The translations under genes were made by a program, and so were the position numbers. The notes under the pieces were generated by a model that had not been told where the DNA came from, ran no database searches, and was given only the letters and a program-made list of their open reading frames with translations. From an uncultured Anaerolineales bacterium (GTDB lineage Bacteria > Chloroflexota > Anaerolineae > UBA4142 > SHND01): a DNA stretch of 64,000 nucleotides. Shown here one piece after another: positions 20,987 to 41,976 of the stretch (positions within the stretch are counted from its first letter, which is position 1; the number at the start of each line of letters is the position of its first letter). The DNA is taken from assembly GCA_964469005.1 (NCBI GenBank), contig CAYXXF010000021.1:41336-105335 (forward strand), read 5' to 3'.

Positions 20987-22735
20987 CTATTTGCCATTCA
21001 CAATTGGGTTGAACAATGGACCACTGTAGCATGGATACGCGCGCGGATTATAAATTCCGTTTTCTAGTACAACATCCGCCCAACAGTATTCTTTGTTCGG
21101 CGTGTTGTCGTTTTTCAATTGCGCGACGTACCACAACACAAGATTCGTGTTGCCAATCGCTTCGTCGTTCAAAAATTTTTCGGGACCCTGACGAAAATCG
21201 GTGTTGCAGCACGGACCTATCGTCGGTAAATCCGACGCGCCCTCGTCGCGGTTTGGGTCATTGCGCGTGACAAACACCATCGCATTGTCACCGCGTTCAT
21301 ATTTTGAAAATTGCAGGCGTCCGGTTTGCATATTAAAGCCCGCGCCTTGCGCGTTCACAATGCGAAACGAAACACCCGCGTCATTTTCGGGAACGTCGGC
21401 GGCAAGTTTCCATTGTTCCGTTTCCCAATTTTTCCACGCGCCGTTCGACCATTCCGCAAACGTGAATGGCTGCGCCCACTCGATGCGTGTGACGGGGCGA
21501 TACGTTCCTTCGGTGCCGCAGCCGCGTCCGAGATTTGCCGCAATGAGCCGAAAACTGCCATCGTCATGAAATTGAAAACGCTGCTGGTAATAATAATTAC
21601 ACGGCAGGGGCCAGAACTCGCTGAAAAAATCTTGCACGAGTTCAAAGCCAATGCGTTTGCCGTCTTGCATCAAATCCAAAACTTGCGGTCCCGTGAACGC
21701 GACGACAGCCGCTTGCGAAAAAACGGGACAACCAATTGCATCACTGTATCCGAAACCTTCACCCGTCGAATAGCTCACATGCCAATCCACGACTTTGGCG
21801 CTCGTCAAAATTTTGTTGCCTTGATATTCCACGTCCGAAACGCGCAAACCATCGGAACTCGTCAAGATAAAATTCATTTTCCAAGCGCCGTTCGCCAACG
21901 CGTTTTCCTTTTCACAAAAATTCGCGGCAACGACATCATTTTGCAGCGTGCGTTCGGTGAGCGGCGGACCATTGAGCGAACCGAGATTCGTCCAACGCGT
22001 GCCGACCAAAACATTGTCCGTCAAATCTACAATCGCCCACAACGCGCGGTCACCCACTTTGAACGTCGGTGCCAGACAATAATGCAGTGAGCGTTCGCAT
22101 TGCGACGCCTTGAGCGATGTTTTTGTATTCGCCATCATTGCCTGCGCGTTATCGGGCGTGTAACCCAATGCCTGCTGCACTTGCGGAGAATTTTTGGCAA
22201 TCTCGATTGCCAGATCCACCAACGCTTGCGGCGGGTCGGGCTGGGTGTTTTCGTATTGATTGATTGCCATCACACGCTGCGTATTCAATTCCACAATCGC
22301 GGCGGTTAAAAGATTCAACGCATAATTGTACATTTCCACGCGATAACATTTCGTCGTGCGACAAATCGCGGCTTGTCCCACAAAATCACTTGCGCGCAAT
22401 GGCACCACACCAAAAATTTCCGCGCGCAATGTTTTACCATCGCCCGTCCGCGTGTTCTCCGTAAAGCGCGGGTCACGCAGTGCAATGATTTGCGCGTCAG
22501 CGCGTTCGCCGTCCAAACCGAGCAGCGGCAGCACCGCGCCATTTTTCAGCGCATCCGCAACCTGAAACTGCCGCGTCGCCACAACGGGAAGCAACGCACT
22601 TGGCGTTTCCCGCACCGCAAGCACACCGGCTTCAATCGTTGGCGTCGGCGGAACGCGCGTGGGCAGCGGTTGCCCACAGGCGACAAGAAAAACGAGAGAA
22701 ACGAAAAACGAAAAAATGAGACCACGAACCATCAT
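20987..22735 (-). CDS. Lipoprotein with copper-amine-oxidase-like sequence motifs, lacking recognisable Cu-ligand histidines
   Basis: Lipobox LVAC. ATG 22735 overlaps the avd TGA. CAO-like segments: AIVELNTQRV..TQPDPP..AIEIAKNSPQVQQALG, WKMNF..SDGLRVSDVEY.G..IL, YSD, CNYYY..FQFHDDGSF, TNLVLWY. Confidence 0.6.
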   Translation of the reverse strand: MMVRGLIFSFFVSLVFLVACGQPLPTRVPPTPTIEAGVLAVRETPSALLPVVATRQFQVADALKNGAVLPLLGLDGERADAQIIALRDPRFTENTRTGDGKTLRAEIFGVVPLRASDFVGQAAICRTTKCYRVEMYNYALNLLTAAIVELNTQRVMAINQYENTQPDPPQALVDLAIEIAKNSPQVQQALGYTPDNAQAMMANTKTSLKASQCERSLHYCLAPTFKVGDRALWAIVDLTDNVLVGTRWTNLGSLNGPPLTERTLQNDVVAANFCEKENALANGAWKMNFILTSSDGLRVSDVEYQGNKILTSAKVVDWHVSYSTGEGFGYSDAIGCPVFSQAAVVAFTGPQVLDLMQDGKRIGFELVQDFFSEFWPLPCNYYYQQRFQFHDDGSFRLIAANLGRGCGTEGTYRPVTRIEWAQPFTFAEWSNGAWKNWETEQWKLAADVPENDAGVSFRIVNAQGAGFNMQTGRLQFSKYERGDNAMVFVTRNDPNRDEGASDLPTIGPCCNTDFRQGPEKFLNDEAIGNTNLVLWYVAQLKNDNTPNKEYCWADVVLENGIYNPRAYPCYSGPLFNPIVNGK

Positions 22736-23085
22736 GCTGTGTCTGCTCCACCTTTGTTCAACCAACCGCCAAGCAAACGCCCCACCTCATTCGTGAGGCG
22801 CGCACTGTGTTCGAATCCTGCCGCGTCTAATAATTGCAACTCGCTAGCCAAACGCAAATTGGTTCGCAATTCCGCCAGTTCGATATCCGCACGCGTCAAC
22901 GCGTCGCGCTTGTGGTTCACGTTTTTCACTTTCGCGGCGAACAATAACGCGCGCTGCAAATCGAACGCATTACTCTGTATGCGTGTCGCCAGCGAGAAAC
23001 GATATTCGCGCGAAAATTTCAACGTGCGCGGCAAGAGCCACAAAAGTAATTCATACGTTTTGACGAAAATGGGAGATTCCATCAT
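22732..23085 (-). CDS. avd: DGR accessory variability determinant (Avd, four-helix bundle)
   Basis: 117 aa. SPIFVKTYELLLWL, KFSREYRFSLATRI, LRTNLRLASEL, EVGRLLGGW. ATG 23085 overlaps the RT stop (ATGA). Confidence 0.92.
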   Translation of the reverse strand: MMESPIFVKTYELLLWLLPRTLKFSREYRFSLATRIQSNAFDLQRALLFAAKVKNVNHKRDALTRADIELAELRTNLRLASELQLLDAAGFEHSARLTNEVGRLLGGWLNKGGADTA

Positions 23086-24137
23086 AGCGGCATCGCGTGG
23101 AATAATTTCGCGCGCAAGCGTTTCGTATTCCCATGCCGCGCGTGGGCAATCCACGCCTGCGTCGAACGGTCGAGCGTTTCGAAATCAATTTCGCGTGTTT
23201 GATACGCGCGCGTCAATTTACGAAATCGTTCCACAAAATCGCACACATTGTCGCGTTTCAAGCGGCGGCGTTCGGGATACACGCGCCAGCCCAAAAAGGG
23301 AATGCCGTTGTGTACGGGATAAACTACCGTTTTGCGCGGATGCGTCACGAGGCGCAGCGTTTGTAAAAATTTCTCGATGGCTGCGCGCCATTCCCATAGT
23401 ACGCGTTTCTCGTTCGAGAACAAAACAAAATCATCCACGTAACGCACATACGCTTTTACTTTTAATTCCCGTTTCACAAATTGGTCCAACTCGTTCAAAT
23501 ACACATTCGCCCAAAATTGCGAGGTGAGATTGCCGATGGGCAACCCGCGCGGACGATTGACGGCGAATAAATCATCGTCCGGGAAATACTGCATGATGTA
23601 CTGGTCACGATGAATTTCCGCGCCGCTCGCCAAAATTTTTTCAATCAGCCACAACACCTGTTCATCGGCGATAGGACGCGCGAGAATTTTGAAAAGAATC
23701 GCGTGGTCAATCGAAGGGAAACACTGCGCAATGTCGCCTTGTAACGCGTATTTATATTTTTGTGAAAAATCCTGCGCGCGGTCGAGCGCGCGGTGGGTCC
23801 CCTTCTTTTTGCGATTCGCATACGAGTCAAAAATAAATTTGCGTTCGAATATCGGTTCAATAATGTTGCAGAGCGCGTGATGCACCACGCGGTCACGAAA
23901 CGGCGCCGCGCTCACCAAGCGTTTTTTGCGGTCATCCAAACGAAAACTGTGATACGCGCCCGGCGTGTACGTTTGCGCGCGTAACTCTTCTTGCAGTTGC
24001 AGCAATTCGTCCTCAAAATTGAATTCGAATCGAAACACCTGCTGCTTGTCGCGCTTGCCGCGCCGCGCTTTATAGTACGCGTTCAACAAATTCGCGAACG
24101 TGTTGATTTGTGGATAGAGTTCGTCGTAACGTTTCAT
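23082..24137 (-). CDS. DGR-class reverse transcriptase
   Basis: 351 aa. KKRLVSAAPFRDRVVHHAL, GTHRAL, GDIAQCFPSIDH, GLPIGNLTSQFWANVYL (DGR-type SQ motif), YVRYVDDF, FLG. No maturase or endonuclease domain. Confidence 0.96.
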   Translation of the reverse strand: MKRYDELYPQINTFANLLNAYYKARRGKRDKQQVFRFEFNFEDELLQLQEELRAQTYTPGAYHSFRLDDRKKRLVSAAPFRDRVVHHALCNIIEPIFERKFIFDSYANRKKKGTHRALDRAQDFSQKYKYALQGDIAQCFPSIDHAILFKILARPIADEQVLWLIEKILASGAEIHRDQYIMQYFPDDDLFAVNRPRGLPIGNLTSQFWANVYLNELDQFVKRELKVKAYVRYVDDFVLFSNEKRVLWEWRAAIEKFLQTLRLVTHPRKTVVYPVHNGIPFLGWRVYPERRRLKRDNVCDFVERFRKLTRAYQTREIDFETLDRSTQAWIAHARHGNTKRLRAKLFHAMPL

Positions 24138-24176: not shown

Positions 24177-24201
24177 CCCCCTCTCCCAAAGGGAGAGGGG
24201 G
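24177..24201. repeat. Hairpin CCCCCTCTCCC-AAA-GGGAGAGGGGG between target and RT
   Basis: Perfect 11-bp stem, 3-nt loop. Confidence 0.7.
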
Positions 24202-24232
24202 AGAAATCAAAAGCGCAGCTAGCTGGAGGGTG

Positions 24233-24266
24233 AGACCTTTCGGGTTTTCGGAAACCCGAAAGGTCT
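24233..24266. repeat. Perfect 15-bp hairpin (family A palindrome) downstream of VR
   Basis: AGACCTTTCGGGTTT-TCGG-AAACCCGAAAGGTCT. Confidence 0.75.
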
Positions 24267-24342: not shown

Positions 24343-27036
24343 CTAACGGAACGACTCGGCAACGCGAAACCCGTCATCGTTGTAGCGGTCGCGCGGGACG
24401 CTGTAGTAGCGGCCCGCGGCGCGGGCGTCGTCGGAATCATAGATGAACGAGCCGCCGCGTAGAACCTTGGTGTCCTTATCATAATCGCTGCTCGTCCATT
24501 CCCAAACATTGCCACACATATCCAACGCGCCGCAAGGACTCGCGCCCTCCAGAAAAATGCCCACAGGTGAAGTGCCGCCCAAACCCAACTCGCGTGTATT
24601 CGCTTTTTGTTTTTCGAACTCGTCGCCCCAAGGATATTTGCGTCCATCGGTTCCCCGCGCCGCGCGTTCCCATTCCTGTTCCGTCGGCAAACGAAATTTT
24701 CGTTTCGTCGTTTGGCTCAACCATTCGCAGTATGCCACAGCATCATGCCACGAAACGCCGCGCACAGGATAATTGGAACGCGCTGGCGCAAAACTGCGTG
24801 TTGTCTCATCCCATTCAAAACCTGGGACGGCATGCTGCATCGCGTCAACAAACTTTTTGTATTGCTGATTCGTCACGAGATATTTGGCGATACGGAAGGG
24901 CTGTTCAATTTTTTCCGCGCGTTTTTCATCGCCGTACAAAAATTCGCCTGCAGGAACGTCGAGCATTTCATCAAAATTGCGCGGGTCGCCCAATTTTCCC
25001 AACGCTTGCGCAGCCGCAAGCCGCACGCGAAATTCTGAATCGGTATCAACGATGGCGACAAGCGTCGGCACAAATTGCGACAGCGCAAGTTCATTCATCA
25101 ATTCCGCCGCGCGCGCGCGTTCGACGCCGTCAGTGGTTTCACGCGCGCGCGCAATGTGTTGCAAACGTTCCAGCGTCTCGTCGCGCCAACGCGCTTGAAG
25201 CATCACTTTTTCGGTCAAGGCGCGCGCGGCAGTGAACACACTCGCGGCGCGCGGCGAATGTAACAATTGTTCCGCAATGAAATTCGCGTGTTCATGCGGC
25301 GGCATCGCCATATACAAGAGGGTCACTTCTTCCCAAACGGGATTCGCCAAACTATCGAGCAGCGGCGTCGGCACGCCAAGCGTTTTCGACAACGCATCCG
25401 CCGCGAGATATTCTTGAAACGTGAGATGCGAAAACGTGACGAGTCCTTCGCCCGTTTCTTTATCTGTGCCGATTTCGCGCAAGATGCCGCTCTCTTGTTT
25501 CACGCCCTCGAGCCAAGCCTGCGCTTTTTCCACACATGCCAGATAACGCGCGTTCGGTTCTGCGGGCAGCAGCGCGGGAATCAAGTTTGGCAAATGGTCG
25601 GCAATGATACGTTCGGCGCGAGTGCGTAACAGTGGGACTTGTCCTTCGCTCCCATCAGAGCGCTGCTGTTGAATTTCCAACGCCAACGCGCGCAGCAAAA
25701 TAATTTTTTGTTCCAAATTCAACTCGTCGCGGCGCGCGCTCGCCAATTGCAATTCGCCTTTTTTGCGGTCACGCCAACGTTCGGTGAGAATCTCGACGCA
25801 ATCGCGATACAGGATGTGGCGTTCCTCAGGAAACTCCAAACGCACGGAATGAACCAACACAATCAACGAAAGCAAAAGCGGGTTTTCGGCAAGGTCGCGC
25901 AAGCGCGTATTGCGATTCAAAACCGCTTTCAAGCGCGCAGCGCGTTCCGCATAATCACGTTCCAAAAATTTTTTGCGCGCCTCCGCTTCGCCCACACCGT
26001 CGCGAATCGCATAGGCGCGATACAATTGTTCCACCAACCGCACGCTGTCGCGCGGCGTCAAGGGCTGGACGGTTTGTTCCGCGAAACCCAGCGCGCCAAG
26101 TTGTCCTTCGTATCCCACTTTGCGCGTGGTCGCGAGAAAACGATTTTTACGTTCGCCATACGCATTCAACAAACCCGCGACATGCTCCGCCATCGCTTGA
26201 CGCGCGCCCGGACTGCCCAATTCGTCGAACGCGTCAAGCAGCACAATACAGTCGCCGCGTTCCAAACGATGTTTGAAAAAATCGGGCGGACACGGCACCA
26301 AAATCTGCCGCGCAAATTCATCTTGAAACGCGTCAAGCAAGGTTCGTGTTTTGCCCCAACCCAACACATCGCTTTGTCTGCCCAACGAAACAAAAATCGG
26401 AAACGGGCGCGTTTTCCAACCGAGACGTTCGCGCACCAAATTGCGCGCATCGCCTTCACGCGGCTTGTTCCGCCGCGCCCGCGCGCACGTCACTGCGAGA
26501 TATTTCAGCAAGGTTGTTTTACCGGACCCCGGGTCGCCGCGAATCACGAGACGCGGAAATTGTTCAAGTGTACGCCCAAGTTCACTCCCGTATTGTTTTG
26601 GTTCGGGACGAAAGCGTTCGGGAACGAAACGCCACAACCCGCGCGGGCGATACATACGCCCCATCCGTTGGTCCAAAATAAAGAGGTCAGTGTCCTCACG
26701 CGGCTCACTTTGTCCCGTTCCCGTCAAGCGCAATTCCACAAACACTTTTTCCAATTCCGCGCCTTGCGCGCTCGGCACATTTGCCGCAATGTTGCTGGGC
26801 AATAATCCCAACGACATGTTGCGCTGAATCATCCAATCCAAATAGGCGCGCTCAAACTTGTAATCGGCGCCGCGTCCGCTCGCAAAGGCGAACAACGCTT
26901 CACCGCCTCTTTGTATTTGGCGGAGCAGCCACGGTACAAGTTCGCGCAAAAACAACCCAAGAAAAAAAAGAATGACCCCGACAATCAGCGCGTTGCTGCC
27001 ATAATTTTTGATGAATTCGTCAAGCCAAGTAGGCAT
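24343..27036 (-). CDS. DGR target: TM-NACHT NTPase-HEAT-FGE-sulfatase (CLec-fold) protein
   Basis: TM at about aa 16-36. Walker A GDPGSGKT, Walker B VLLDAFDE, FLATTR, NPLLL, FSHLTFQEYLAA. HEAT RVRLAAAQALGKLGDPR. FGE motifs VTNQQY, VSWHDAVAYCEWL, RLPTEQEWERAARG, MCGNVWEW, RGGS, GFRV. Confidence 0.92.
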   Translation of the reverse strand: MPTWLDEFIKNYGSNALIVGVILFFLGLFLRELVPWLLRQIQRGGEALFAFASGRGADYKFERAYLDWMIQRNMSLGLLPSNIAANVPSAQGAELEKVFVELRLTGTGQSEPREDTDLFILDQRMGRMYRPRGLWRFVPERFRPEPKQYGSELGRTLEQFPRLVIRGDPGSGKTTLLKYLAVTCARARRNKPREGDARNLVRERLGWKTRPFPIFVSLGRQSDVLGWGKTRTLLDAFQDEFARQILVPCPPDFFKHRLERGDCIVLLDAFDELGSPGARQAMAEHVAGLLNAYGERKNRFLATTRKVGYEGQLGALGFAEQTVQPLTPRDSVRLVEQLYRAYAIRDGVGEAEARKKFLERDYAERAARLKAVLNRNTRLRDLAENPLLLSLIVLVHSVRLEFPEERHILYRDCVEILTERWRDRKKGELQLASARRDELNLEQKIILLRALALEIQQQRSDGSEGQVPLLRTRAERIIADHLPNLIPALLPAEPNARYLACVEKAQAWLEGVKQESGILREIGTDKETGEGLVTFSHLTFQEYLAADALSKTLGVPTPLLDSLANPVWEEVTLLYMAMPPHEHANFIAEQLLHSPRAASVFTAARALTEKVMLQARWRDETLERLQHIARARETTDGVERARAAELMNELALSQFVPTLVAIVDTDSEFRVRLAAAQALGKLGDPRNFDEMLDVPAGEFLYGDEKRAEKIEQPFRIAKYLVTNQQYKKFVDAMQHAVPGFEWDETTRSFAPARSNYPVRGVSWHDAVAYCEWLSQTTKRKFRLPTEQEWERAARGTDGRKYPWGDEFEKQKANTRELGLGGTSPVGIFLEGASPCGALDMCGNVWEWTSSDYDKDTKVLRGGSFIYDSDDARAAGRYYSVPRDRYNDDGFRVAESFR
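24350..24461 (-). repeat. DGR variable repeat (VR), the 3' end of the target gene
   Basis: Ungapped 112-bp match to 27269-27380 with 18 mismatches, all opposite TR adenines. Encodes RGGSFIYDSDDARAAGRYYSVPRDRYNDDGFRVAES. Confidence 0.97.
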
Positions 27037-27268: not shown

Positions 27269-27380
27269 AATGATTCGGCAACGCGAAACCCGTTATTGTT
27301 GTTGCGGTTGTGCGGGTTGTTGTTGTTGCGGTTCGCGGCGCGGGCGTTGTCGGATTCATTGTTGAACGAGCCGCCGCGTA
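27269..27380 (-). ncRNA. DGR template repeat (TR)
   Basis: In the target frame it reads RGGSFNNESDNARAANRNNNNPHNRNNNNGFRVAES, with 13 AAY codons. 34 adenines, 18 of which differ in VR. Confidence 0.97.
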
Positions 27381-40812: not shown

Positions 40813-41976
40813 TTATGACCCTTTCACATATTTATTGAAAAATTCTATCGTGCGCTGCATTGCGGTCCCGAAATTTTGCGAAATGTTGTGATTGTCACCG
40901 CGATACAAATACAATTCAGAGTTACCATCCACTGCAAGAATTTGTTCATTCAACAATTCCGAAAAGAGAACGGGAACGGAGGTATCGGCAGTACCGTGAT
41001 GCAATTGAATCGGCGCGGACAATTCCGCAAGATAGGAATTGGCGGAAATCGAATTCCAAAATTCGGGATTCTCTTGCGGCGTGCCGTACATTTCTTGCAA
41101 TTCGTCGCGCCAACGGCGCTGCGTTGAACCACTCGGCGGCACACTCGACGCACTGCCGCTCGATGGACGACGCCAGCGCGAAATCAAATCGGGATACGAT
41201 GCGACGACGCCTGCCCAAATCGAACCCGCTTTGATGCTCGGGTCAATCACCATTGCACGCAGCGTGATGTAACCGCCCATCGAATGTCCCCACATGCCGA
41301 TACGATTTGGGTCCGCGTCAGGAAATTTTTTCATGGTTCCCACCGCGTTCAACACATCAACCGTGTAATCGGGCGAACCGTAACCGCCACGCGCGTCGCC
41401 TTCGGAATTGCCGTGACCGCGATAATCGGAACGAAACACAATGTACCCACTGCGCGCGATGCGGTCAACGTAATCTACGTAACGTTCGGTGGTACGATAT
41501 TGTGTGGGCGGAATATAACCATGATTGAAAATGATTACGGGGAAACCTGTTTCAGGTTTCGCGCCGCGCGGCACGGTGAGCAGTGCGTAAATTTTCAAAC
41601 CATCCGATTGGTACGACGCAAGATAGCGATTGTAATTGGAACCGGGTGTGAGTGTTTGTTCGATGACAACGTCACTGCCGGGATAGTCGCGCGCGCGTCC
41701 AACGGAAATCATTAACGGATGTTGTGGCGTCGCGGTCGGTTGCGGTGTCTGTGTTGGCGCGCGAGTTTCGGTTGGTTGAAGCGTGTTCGTCGGATTGGCG
41801 TCAGATTCAGCGGTGGGATTGGAAACGGAATGAGTGGCTTGTGCAGGCGCAGATGTGGCAATAATCGCAGCGCGCGTGGGCACTGCAAGCGGTGTTAATT
41901 CTGTCGAACATGCCGCGAGAATGAGACCGAGTGCTACAAGTAGAAAAACAATTGGCGTACGAAAAAAGCCGCGCAT
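40813..41976 (-). CDS. Lipoprotein alpha/beta hydrolase (S9-like)
   Basis: Lipobox ILAAC, P/T-rich linker, GMWGHSMGG nucleophile motif, HHGTADTSV, DNHN. Confidence 0.88.
   Translation of the reverse strand: MRGFFRTPIVFLLVALGLILAACSTELTPLAVPTRAAIIATSAPAQATHSVSNPTAESDANPTNTLQPTETRAPTQTPQPTATPQHPLMISVGRARDYPGSDVVIEQTLTPGSNYNRYLASYQSDGLKIYALLTVPRGAKPETGFPVIIFNHGYIPPTQYRTTERYVDYVDRIARSGYIVFRSDYRGHGNSEGDARGGYGSPDYTVDVLNAVGTMKKFPDADPNRIGMWGHSMGGYITLRAMVIDPSIKAGSIWAGVVASYPDLISRWRRPSSGSASSVPPSGSTQRRWRDELQEMYGTPQENPEFWNSISANSYLAELSAPIQLHHGTADTSVPVLFSELLNEQILAVDGNSELYLYRGDNHNISQNFGTAMQRTIEFFNKYVKGS

Follow-up and report, generated by a model that had tools for sequence, protein, structure and literature searches.

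Background

Diversity-generating retroelements (DGRs) have been described by Doré et al. 2024 (PMC10907252) in multicellular bacteria, including filamentous Chloroflexi, where the targets join a NACHT or nSTAND module at their centre to a diversified C-type-lectin-fold (CLec) domain. Two targets per DGR are common in that set, some targets have transmembrane (TM) segments, their N-termini are uncharacterised or carry TIR or peptidase domains, and the authors propose them as putative antigen sensors giving a form of adaptive immunity (PMC10907252). Furthermore, DGR-FGS domains were linked to NTP-dependent conflict systems by Kaur et al. 2020 (PMC7159879), Kibby et al. placed FGS domains among the 'antigen receptor-type' C-termini of NACHT proteins (bioRxiv 10.1101/2022.07.19.500537), and FGE-sulfatase sensors on STANDs have been reported (PMC13581612); the words 'retroelement' and 'DGR' occur in neither of the latter two reports. 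The idea of a somatically diversified intracellular receptor has therefore already been published for this class (PMC10907252; PMC7159879; bioRxiv 10.1101/2022.07.19.500537). Here we analyse a 64,000-nucleotide stretch of DNA (positions 41,336 to 105,335 of contig CAYXXF010000021.1, assembly GCA_964469005.1), hereafter the window, from a metagenome-assembled genome of an uncultured Chloroflexota/Anaerolineales bacterium, and in it a DGR whose target gene encodes a putative membrane-anchored NACHT-CLec protein, P0001.

By its sequence P0001 falls into an already published class, the DGR-diversified STAND-CLec putative 'antigen sensors'. Like the loci of that class, e.g. DGR 3 of Thiohalocapsa PB-PSB1 and the 'clade 5D' loci (PMC10907252), it combines a cellular DGR with a target that has NACHT at its centre and, at its C-terminus, a single CLec domain holding the variable repeat (VR). 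TM segments and N-terminal extensions without a known domain occur in some of those targets, two paralogous targets per DGR are also seen in relatives of P0001, and hosts include filamentous Chloroflexi. Unlike that class, the DGR in the window has a single target and the order template repeat (TR), target, reverse transcriptase (RT), Avd; the N-terminal module of P0001 is one conserved helix, and its NACHT and CLec domains are separated by a HEAT segment. With the bNACHT FGS proteins (bioRxiv 10.1101/2022.07.19.500537) and the FGE-sulfatase STAND sensors (PMC13581612) it shares the D[GAS]hDE signature, an FGE-like sensor and, putatively, the tripartite logic, whereas the sensors of the tested bNACHT proteins differ from this one and their N-termini are enzymatic or of other kinds, and P0001 gives no threshold match to the EruA or PADLOC models. 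The nucleotide-binding, helical and winged-helix fold is common to P0001 and the animal NLRs NLRC4, NOD2 and NLRP3 over about 550-670 aligned columns (Foldseek), at 12-16% identity; in contrast to these, its sensor, a target of retroelement hypermutation, is a CLec domain and not leucine-rich repeats, and its N-terminus a membrane helix and not a CARD or PYD. Classical DGR proteins such as Treponema TvpA (2y3c) and Mtd of Bordetella phage likewise carry the VR at the C-terminal end of an FGE-type CLec fold, but these are surface or tail-fibre binders without an NTPase, whereas the CLec domain of P0001 would act in the cytoplasm as the sensor arm of a STAND switch. Specific to the present locus are a well-delimited Anaerolineae subfamily, an N-terminal module made of one conserved helix and the TR-first layout.

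The retroelement and its conservation

All elements of the DGR lie on the minus strand, in the order TR, target, RT and Avd. The TR (27269..27380; 112 nucleotides, 34 of them adenines) is located 232 nucleotides upstream of the ATG of the target gene, and the VR (24350..24461), a direct repeat with the TR, forms the last 37 residues (859-895 of 897) within the FGE-sulfatase domain at the C-terminal end of P0001. Every one of the 18 mismatches between the two repeats falls on a TR adenine (11 A to G, 7 A to T) and the non-adenine positions are identical throughout (78/78), a pattern far beyond chance. The TR was computed to hold 13 AAY codons and 18 variable codons, giving about 10^18 protein variants with no reachable stop codon. 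The RT (23082..24137; 351 residues; RVT_1, E 9e-23) carries the motifs YVDD and LTSQ, the SQ of the latter being typical of DGR reverse transcriptases, and RTs 52-70% identical to it occur in Anaerolineales, Chloroflexus and Oscillochloris. It is followed by the accessory protein Avd (22732..23085; 117 residues; bAvd PF22296, E 3e-17), which is 44% identical to the Avd of contig C18, where the second DGR of this genome resides. ATGA stop/start overlaps join RT to avd (23082-23085) and avd to an open reading frame (ORF) of 592 residues (22732-22735). A whole-genome blastn search yielded no further VR that matches the TR of the window at non-adenine positions, and the DGR, as read from its four parts (TR, target, RT, Avd), is complete and chromosomal, its RT and Avd being intact, with P0001 as its single target.

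Related loci place the same family beside RT and Avd genes. An orthologous locus, L083, has the TR-first layout of the window, while L085 is ordered target 1, RT, Avd, TR, target 2, with the position of its TR shown directly; in L093-L095 an orthologue of P0001 follows directly after RT and Avd. Since the TR comes first in L083 and precedes the second target in L085, its position just upstream of a P0001-type target would be a trait of the lineage and no accident. Across these five loci the link to the retroelement is thus stable.

Two further observations concern the elements themselves. The RT of L083 is broken (L083:10985-11846), with residues 1-217 and 279-351 in different frames and the YVDD stretch missing, which suggests recent inactivation or an assembly error; the TR and VR of L083 differ at 15 positions, 15/15 at adenines, and match perfectly elsewhere. 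In the window, two strong hairpins were read by eye between the stop of the target and the start of the RT (minus strand, 24178-24265). The first, at 24234-24265, has a perfect 14-base-pair stem, GACCTTTCGGGTTT/AAACCCGAAAGGTC, and the second, at 24178-24200, a C-rich/G-rich one; a role in termination, attenuation or DGR homing is conceivable for them.

Architecture, fold and topology of the target protein

The target gene (24343..27036, minus strand) encodes 897 residues, and its start codon is backed by an identical N-terminus in the orthologue P0004. A single TM helix (26938..26991, about residues 16-33) runs on to residue 52 in the structure model and is followed by the NACHT module (25357..26871, about residues 56-560), which comprises a segment ahead of the P-loop and the nucleotide-binding, helical and winged-helix domains. 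A helical/HEAT linker (24973..25356, about residues 561-688) then leads to the FGE-sulfatase or CLec domain (24346..24972, residues 689-897). In Pfam searches the NACHT scored 32.3 bits against a cut-off of 26.7, with an alignment that covers the P-loop stretch only; HEAT_2 matched residues 629-690 (E 7e-8) and FGE-sulfatase residues 689-893 (E 5e-47). For the linker, alpha-Rep/HEAT matches were also found in the PDB. These matches, together with the one hydrophobic segment, bear out the TM-NACHT-HEAT-CLec architecture proposed by the initial annotation of this DNA.

That annotation had also held the NACHT module to be complete and had named its degeneration in homologues among the outcomes that would refute the proposal. 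All of the motifs that it quoted are present in the translation: GDPGSGKT (167-174), LLDAFDE (266-272), ATTR (302-305), NPLLL (385-389) and FSHLTFQEYLAA (535-546). Conservation was assessed in an alignment of 48 full-length homologues at 35-71% identity, and the signatures proved invariant in all 48. The Walker A residues G167, P169, G170, G172, K173 and T175 are unchanged in 48/48, as are D268 and D271 of the Walker B motif DAFDE (268-272), the E272 of which is kept in at least 90%, and R305, P386, F535 and the winged-helix H537. DAFDE fits the D[GAS]hDE pattern, by which NACHT is told apart from the remaining STAND NTPases (Kibby et al., bioRxiv 10.1101/2022.07.19.500537).

A single-chain AlphaFold2 model built on the 48-homologue alignment reached a mean pLDDT of 85.1 and a pTM of 0.74. 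Its centre matches NLRC4 (E 2e-11), NOD2 and NLRP3 (E 2e-11 to 1e-8 for the three), and its C-terminal domain ToxD 7spq (E 2e-15), CalU17, PvdO and the DGR protein TvpA 2y3c (E 2e-8) in Foldseek; the match of the latter domain to TvpA also appears at the level of PDB sequence profiles (E 5e-25). Aligned to true FGE, P0001 lacks the catalytic cysteine pair in both the VR and the sequence encoded by the TR, and the two cysteines of the enzyme fall onto the loop that is the VR in P0001. As the pair is absent and the loop is the VR, the domain is best seen as a non-catalytic, putative binding scaffold and not an enzyme. The best PDB sequence match, 7spq, was set aside as a DGR protein, since the entry ('Ser/Thr kinase ToxD') is an FGE-like protein of the toxoflavin pathway. 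FGE/CLec-domain genes are strongly expanded in the order: single genomes among the relatives G001-G030 gave as many as 28 matches and this genome 10, many of them in long open frames.

The initial annotation had placed the NACHT and the diversified pocket in the cytoplasm, and both the flank charges and the homologues with signal peptides agree with this. Residues 16-34 of P0001 have a mean Kyte-Doolittle hydropathy of 2.41 and are accompanied by R31, R38 and R43; over the whole 897 residues no other segment exceeds 1.5. A hydrophobic segment stands ahead of the P-loop in 47 of the 48 homologues, and its C-terminal flank is more positive than the N-terminal one in 38 of the 47 that have the helix. 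Furthermore, among the homologues listed at least five (P0017, P0022, P0026, P0035 and P0059) have, ahead of the helix, a Sec signal peptide (...ALAQ/TPTP...), a stub rich in Pro and Thr, and a WWQITQ motif, and a similar signal peptide and stub were seen by eye in P0028 and P0053. A signal peptide and stub in this position put the N-terminus outside and the NACHT-CLec body inside, and an NTPase with invariant catalytic residues would need cytoplasmic nucleotide, which again argues for a cytoplasmic body. The homologue sequences thus support P0001 as a type-III (N-out, C-in) single-pass membrane protein with a cytoplasmic NLR-like STAND body. Extra hydrophobic TM-like segments were scored in P0049, P0033, P0038, P0039 and P0044-P0046; those of P0049 are an insertion within the CLec domain just ahead of the RGG...VR region, and with segments of this kind the variable tip of these homologues would have a less straightforward topology.

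Proposed mechanism and the effector question

The explanation of the whole that we favour, with moderate confidence, is that P0001 is a DGR-diversified, membrane-anchored NLR-like sensor of the STAND-CLec 'antigen sensor' class. RT and Avd would copy the TR RNA with errors at adenines, a step whose signature is visible in the repeats and whose current activity is presumed, and the complementary DNA would be written into the last 37 codons of the target, so that up to 18 residues could be randomised on the ligand-binding face of the non-catalytic FGE/CLec domain. A ligand in the cytoplasm or close to the membrane, probably an invader or non-kin protein, may then bind and release autoinhibition, whereupon the NACHT would exchange nucleotide and oligomerise. 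Oligomerisation would gather the N-terminal glycine-zipper-like helices in the membrane, and the gathered helices might damage or depolarise it, thereby stopping the infected cell of a filament; from the lineage of the host we infer filamentous growth. The last part, in which the helix itself acts as effector through membrane damage, we hold to be possible and no more probable than that would imply. Its most explicit form, a hypermutating membrane 'resistosome' in which the capture of a ligand by one CLec variant among about 10^18 would lead to a NACHT ring and a depolarising pore of about ten helices, with the helix as executioner, is more tentative still. In the plant ZAR1 resistosome, fungal HeLo domains and CRISPR Cam1, ligand-driven oligomers gather N-terminal helices into a membrane lesion. 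The likeness to P0001 is one of idea alone, and the P0001 helix would be constitutively embedded in the membrane.

The absence of an enzymatic effector (TIR, caspase, nuclease), claimed in the initial annotation, held up in Pfam, NCBIfam and PADLOC searches, which gave no such domain in P0001 and no domain at all within residues 1-160. That annotation had also called for homologues in which known effectors replace the N-terminus, and distant NACHT-FGE relatives indeed carry TIR_2, Trypsin_2 or NNH2 in this slot. The helix of the family has a face of small residues, with position 27 a glycine in 39/46, position 20 small in 80% and position 23 small in 73%, an arrangement that is typical of helix-helix packing as judged from the alignment. 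Together, the small-residue face and the TIR or protease domains in the same slot of distant relatives lend modest support to a helix that would be more than an anchor.

Several observations weigh against this picture of an immune sensor with a membrane-active helix. Position 23 of P0001 itself is leucine, which leaves the small face with G20 and G27 alone, conservation of the helix is low (0.37 vs 0.67 for the nucleotide-binding domain), and a single helix could be a mere anchor. The protein cluster of P0001 has a single member, with no alternative VR alleles on record. The wider neighbours are housekeeping genes (LepA, enoyl-CoA hydratase, asparaginase, glycosyltransferase and an ArsA-like ATPase), on account of which a defence-island setting was rejected, and no NCBIfam or PADLOC defence model was matched at threshold, EruA reaching 28.9 bits against a cut-off of 1000 bits and the best PADLOC match, mad8, 20.9 bits.

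The alternative that survives best leaves the sensor unchanged and makes the helix an anchor at the inner face of the membrane, with the output delivered by an unlinked partner, e.g. the C18 NACHT paralogue, a CHAT protease or another recruited effector; we regard it as a realistic, though minority, possibility. It agrees with the poor conservation of the helix outside the three small-residue positions, and neighbouring peptidases have been proposed as effectors for the TM/NACHT DGR 3 locus (PMC10907252). Moreover, in relatives (L085 and contigs of G018, G002 and G024) one DGR serves two adjoining paralogous NACHT-CLec targets, recalling paired sensor/helper NLRs, and the two-target L085 locus is adjoined by a divergently oriented gene for a TPR-CHAT protein of at least 1045 residues (L085:1-2468), a candidate trans effector for that locus.

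The source genome holds two complete DGRs and an orphan TR/VR pair. The second complete DGR (C18:32266-37404, corresponding to L081:5267-10404) has the canonical order of target, bAvd, TR2 and RT, its RT being 57.5% identical to that of the window. Its target is a NACHT-CLec protein of 1083 residues, 26% identical to P0001, and TR2 (about C18:36021-36141) and VR2 (C18:35377-35497) differ at 22 positions, all at TR adenines (22/22). The N-terminal helical domain of this target, about 290 residues long, begins with a Gly/Ala-rich hydrophobic helix (MDPITLGIALAFGGGIATV); within these 290 residues no Pfam domain was found beyond a weak FISNA match, and homologues number only three. The orphan target (C11:161606-163994, or L082:4607-6994) is a 692-residue CHAT(caspase-like)-CLec protein, and this CHAT-CLec target in the same genome is a further point in favour of a recruited effector. 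Its VR lies at 163558-163680 and its TR 314 nucleotides downstream, at about 163872-163994, with 15/15 mismatches at adenines; no RT or Avd was found near the pair, so the machinery would have to act in trans. Against an unlinked output stand the gene surroundings of P0001, which include no adjoining effector or adaptor domain, the separation of the two NACHT-CLec paralogues in this genome, unlinked and each with its own TR, RT and Avd, and the lack of a detected effector-associated domain in residues 1-160.

Immune or regulatory role

A second alternative accepts the diversified receptor and denies its immune role: P0001 would be a DGR-tuned signalling or regulatory receptor that follows, at the membrane, an endogenous or environmental ligand as it changes, which we consider unlikely. 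Cyanobacterial DGR targets with signalling domains have been read as regulatory tuning. The housekeeping context and the lack of a defence-model match speak for such a role at this locus, as does the translational coupling of avd to the downstream lipoprotein-like gene. On the other hand, a full-length orthologue is present in only 5 of 31 related genomes (this one included), the closest among those listed being 53% identical, and in the comparison with L083 the flanking genes share 79-90% identity but the target 60%; the scattered occurrence and the rapid divergence are both in keeping with a conflict gene. The TIR or protease domains in the same slot of relatives and the classing of NACHT-FGS proteins as antigen-receptor type (bioRxiv 10.1101/2022.07.19.500537) also argue for the immune sensor that we prefer.

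The genes downstream of avd encode the 592-residue lipoprotein-like product, with a signal-peptide-like start (MMVRGLIFSFFV), a protein of 349 residues and a DUF11/DUF7933 surface protein. The initial annotation had suggested that these coupled downstream membrane proteins might be recruited as partners. This suggestion did not stand: homologues of the 592-residue, 349-residue and DUF11 genes were found only in the syntenic L083 and are absent from L085, L001, L002 and L081, and L093-L095 have RT and Avd directly upstream of the target instead. We therefore rejected them as parts of the system, despite the ATGA overlap with avd.

Surface display and enzymatic function as improbable readings

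Much less probable is a reading in which the N-terminus serves as signal peptide or C-out signal anchor and the CLec domain faces the exterior as a surface binder. The majority of characterised DGR targets do reside on the surface or are secreted. For one DGR 3 target, a topology prediction assigns both NACHT and CLec to the periplasm (PMC10907252). Export with a cleaved signal peptide had been named by the initial annotation as one of the outcomes that would overturn its proposal; the N-terminal region of P0001 is net negative and without a cleavage motif, most homologues with the helix carry more positive charge on its C-terminal side (38/47, as given above), and a true signal peptide ahead of the helix in homologues forces the body inside, where, unlike outside the cell, an ATP-dependent NACHT with invariant catalytic residues has a supply of nucleotide. 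Finally, a working enzyme of the SUMF1/EgtB/PvdO type at the C-terminus is suggested by the database name of homologues ('SUMF1/EgtB/PvdO family nonheme iron enzyme') and by sub-threshold NCBIfam matches to EgtB and SenA, but every NCBIfam score is far under its cut-off (EgtB 76 vs 360 bits), the catalytic cysteine pair is absent and the equivalent loop is the hypervariable VR, so that we give this reading next to no weight.

Significance

The present gain is a well-documented example and the definition of a subfamily, and not a new principle. The hypothesis at stake is that bacteria use targeted hypermutation to maintain an anticipatory repertoire of intracellular immune receptors. For this hypothesis the family offers a compact test case, with one gene without another effector domain, conserved NTPase motifs, a defined topology and a four-part DGR. 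If the helix is the effector, DGR diversification would be connected directly to resistosome-like killing, and if the pore reading is true, the family would represent a one-protein receptor and killer coupled to an adaptive-style generator of diversity.

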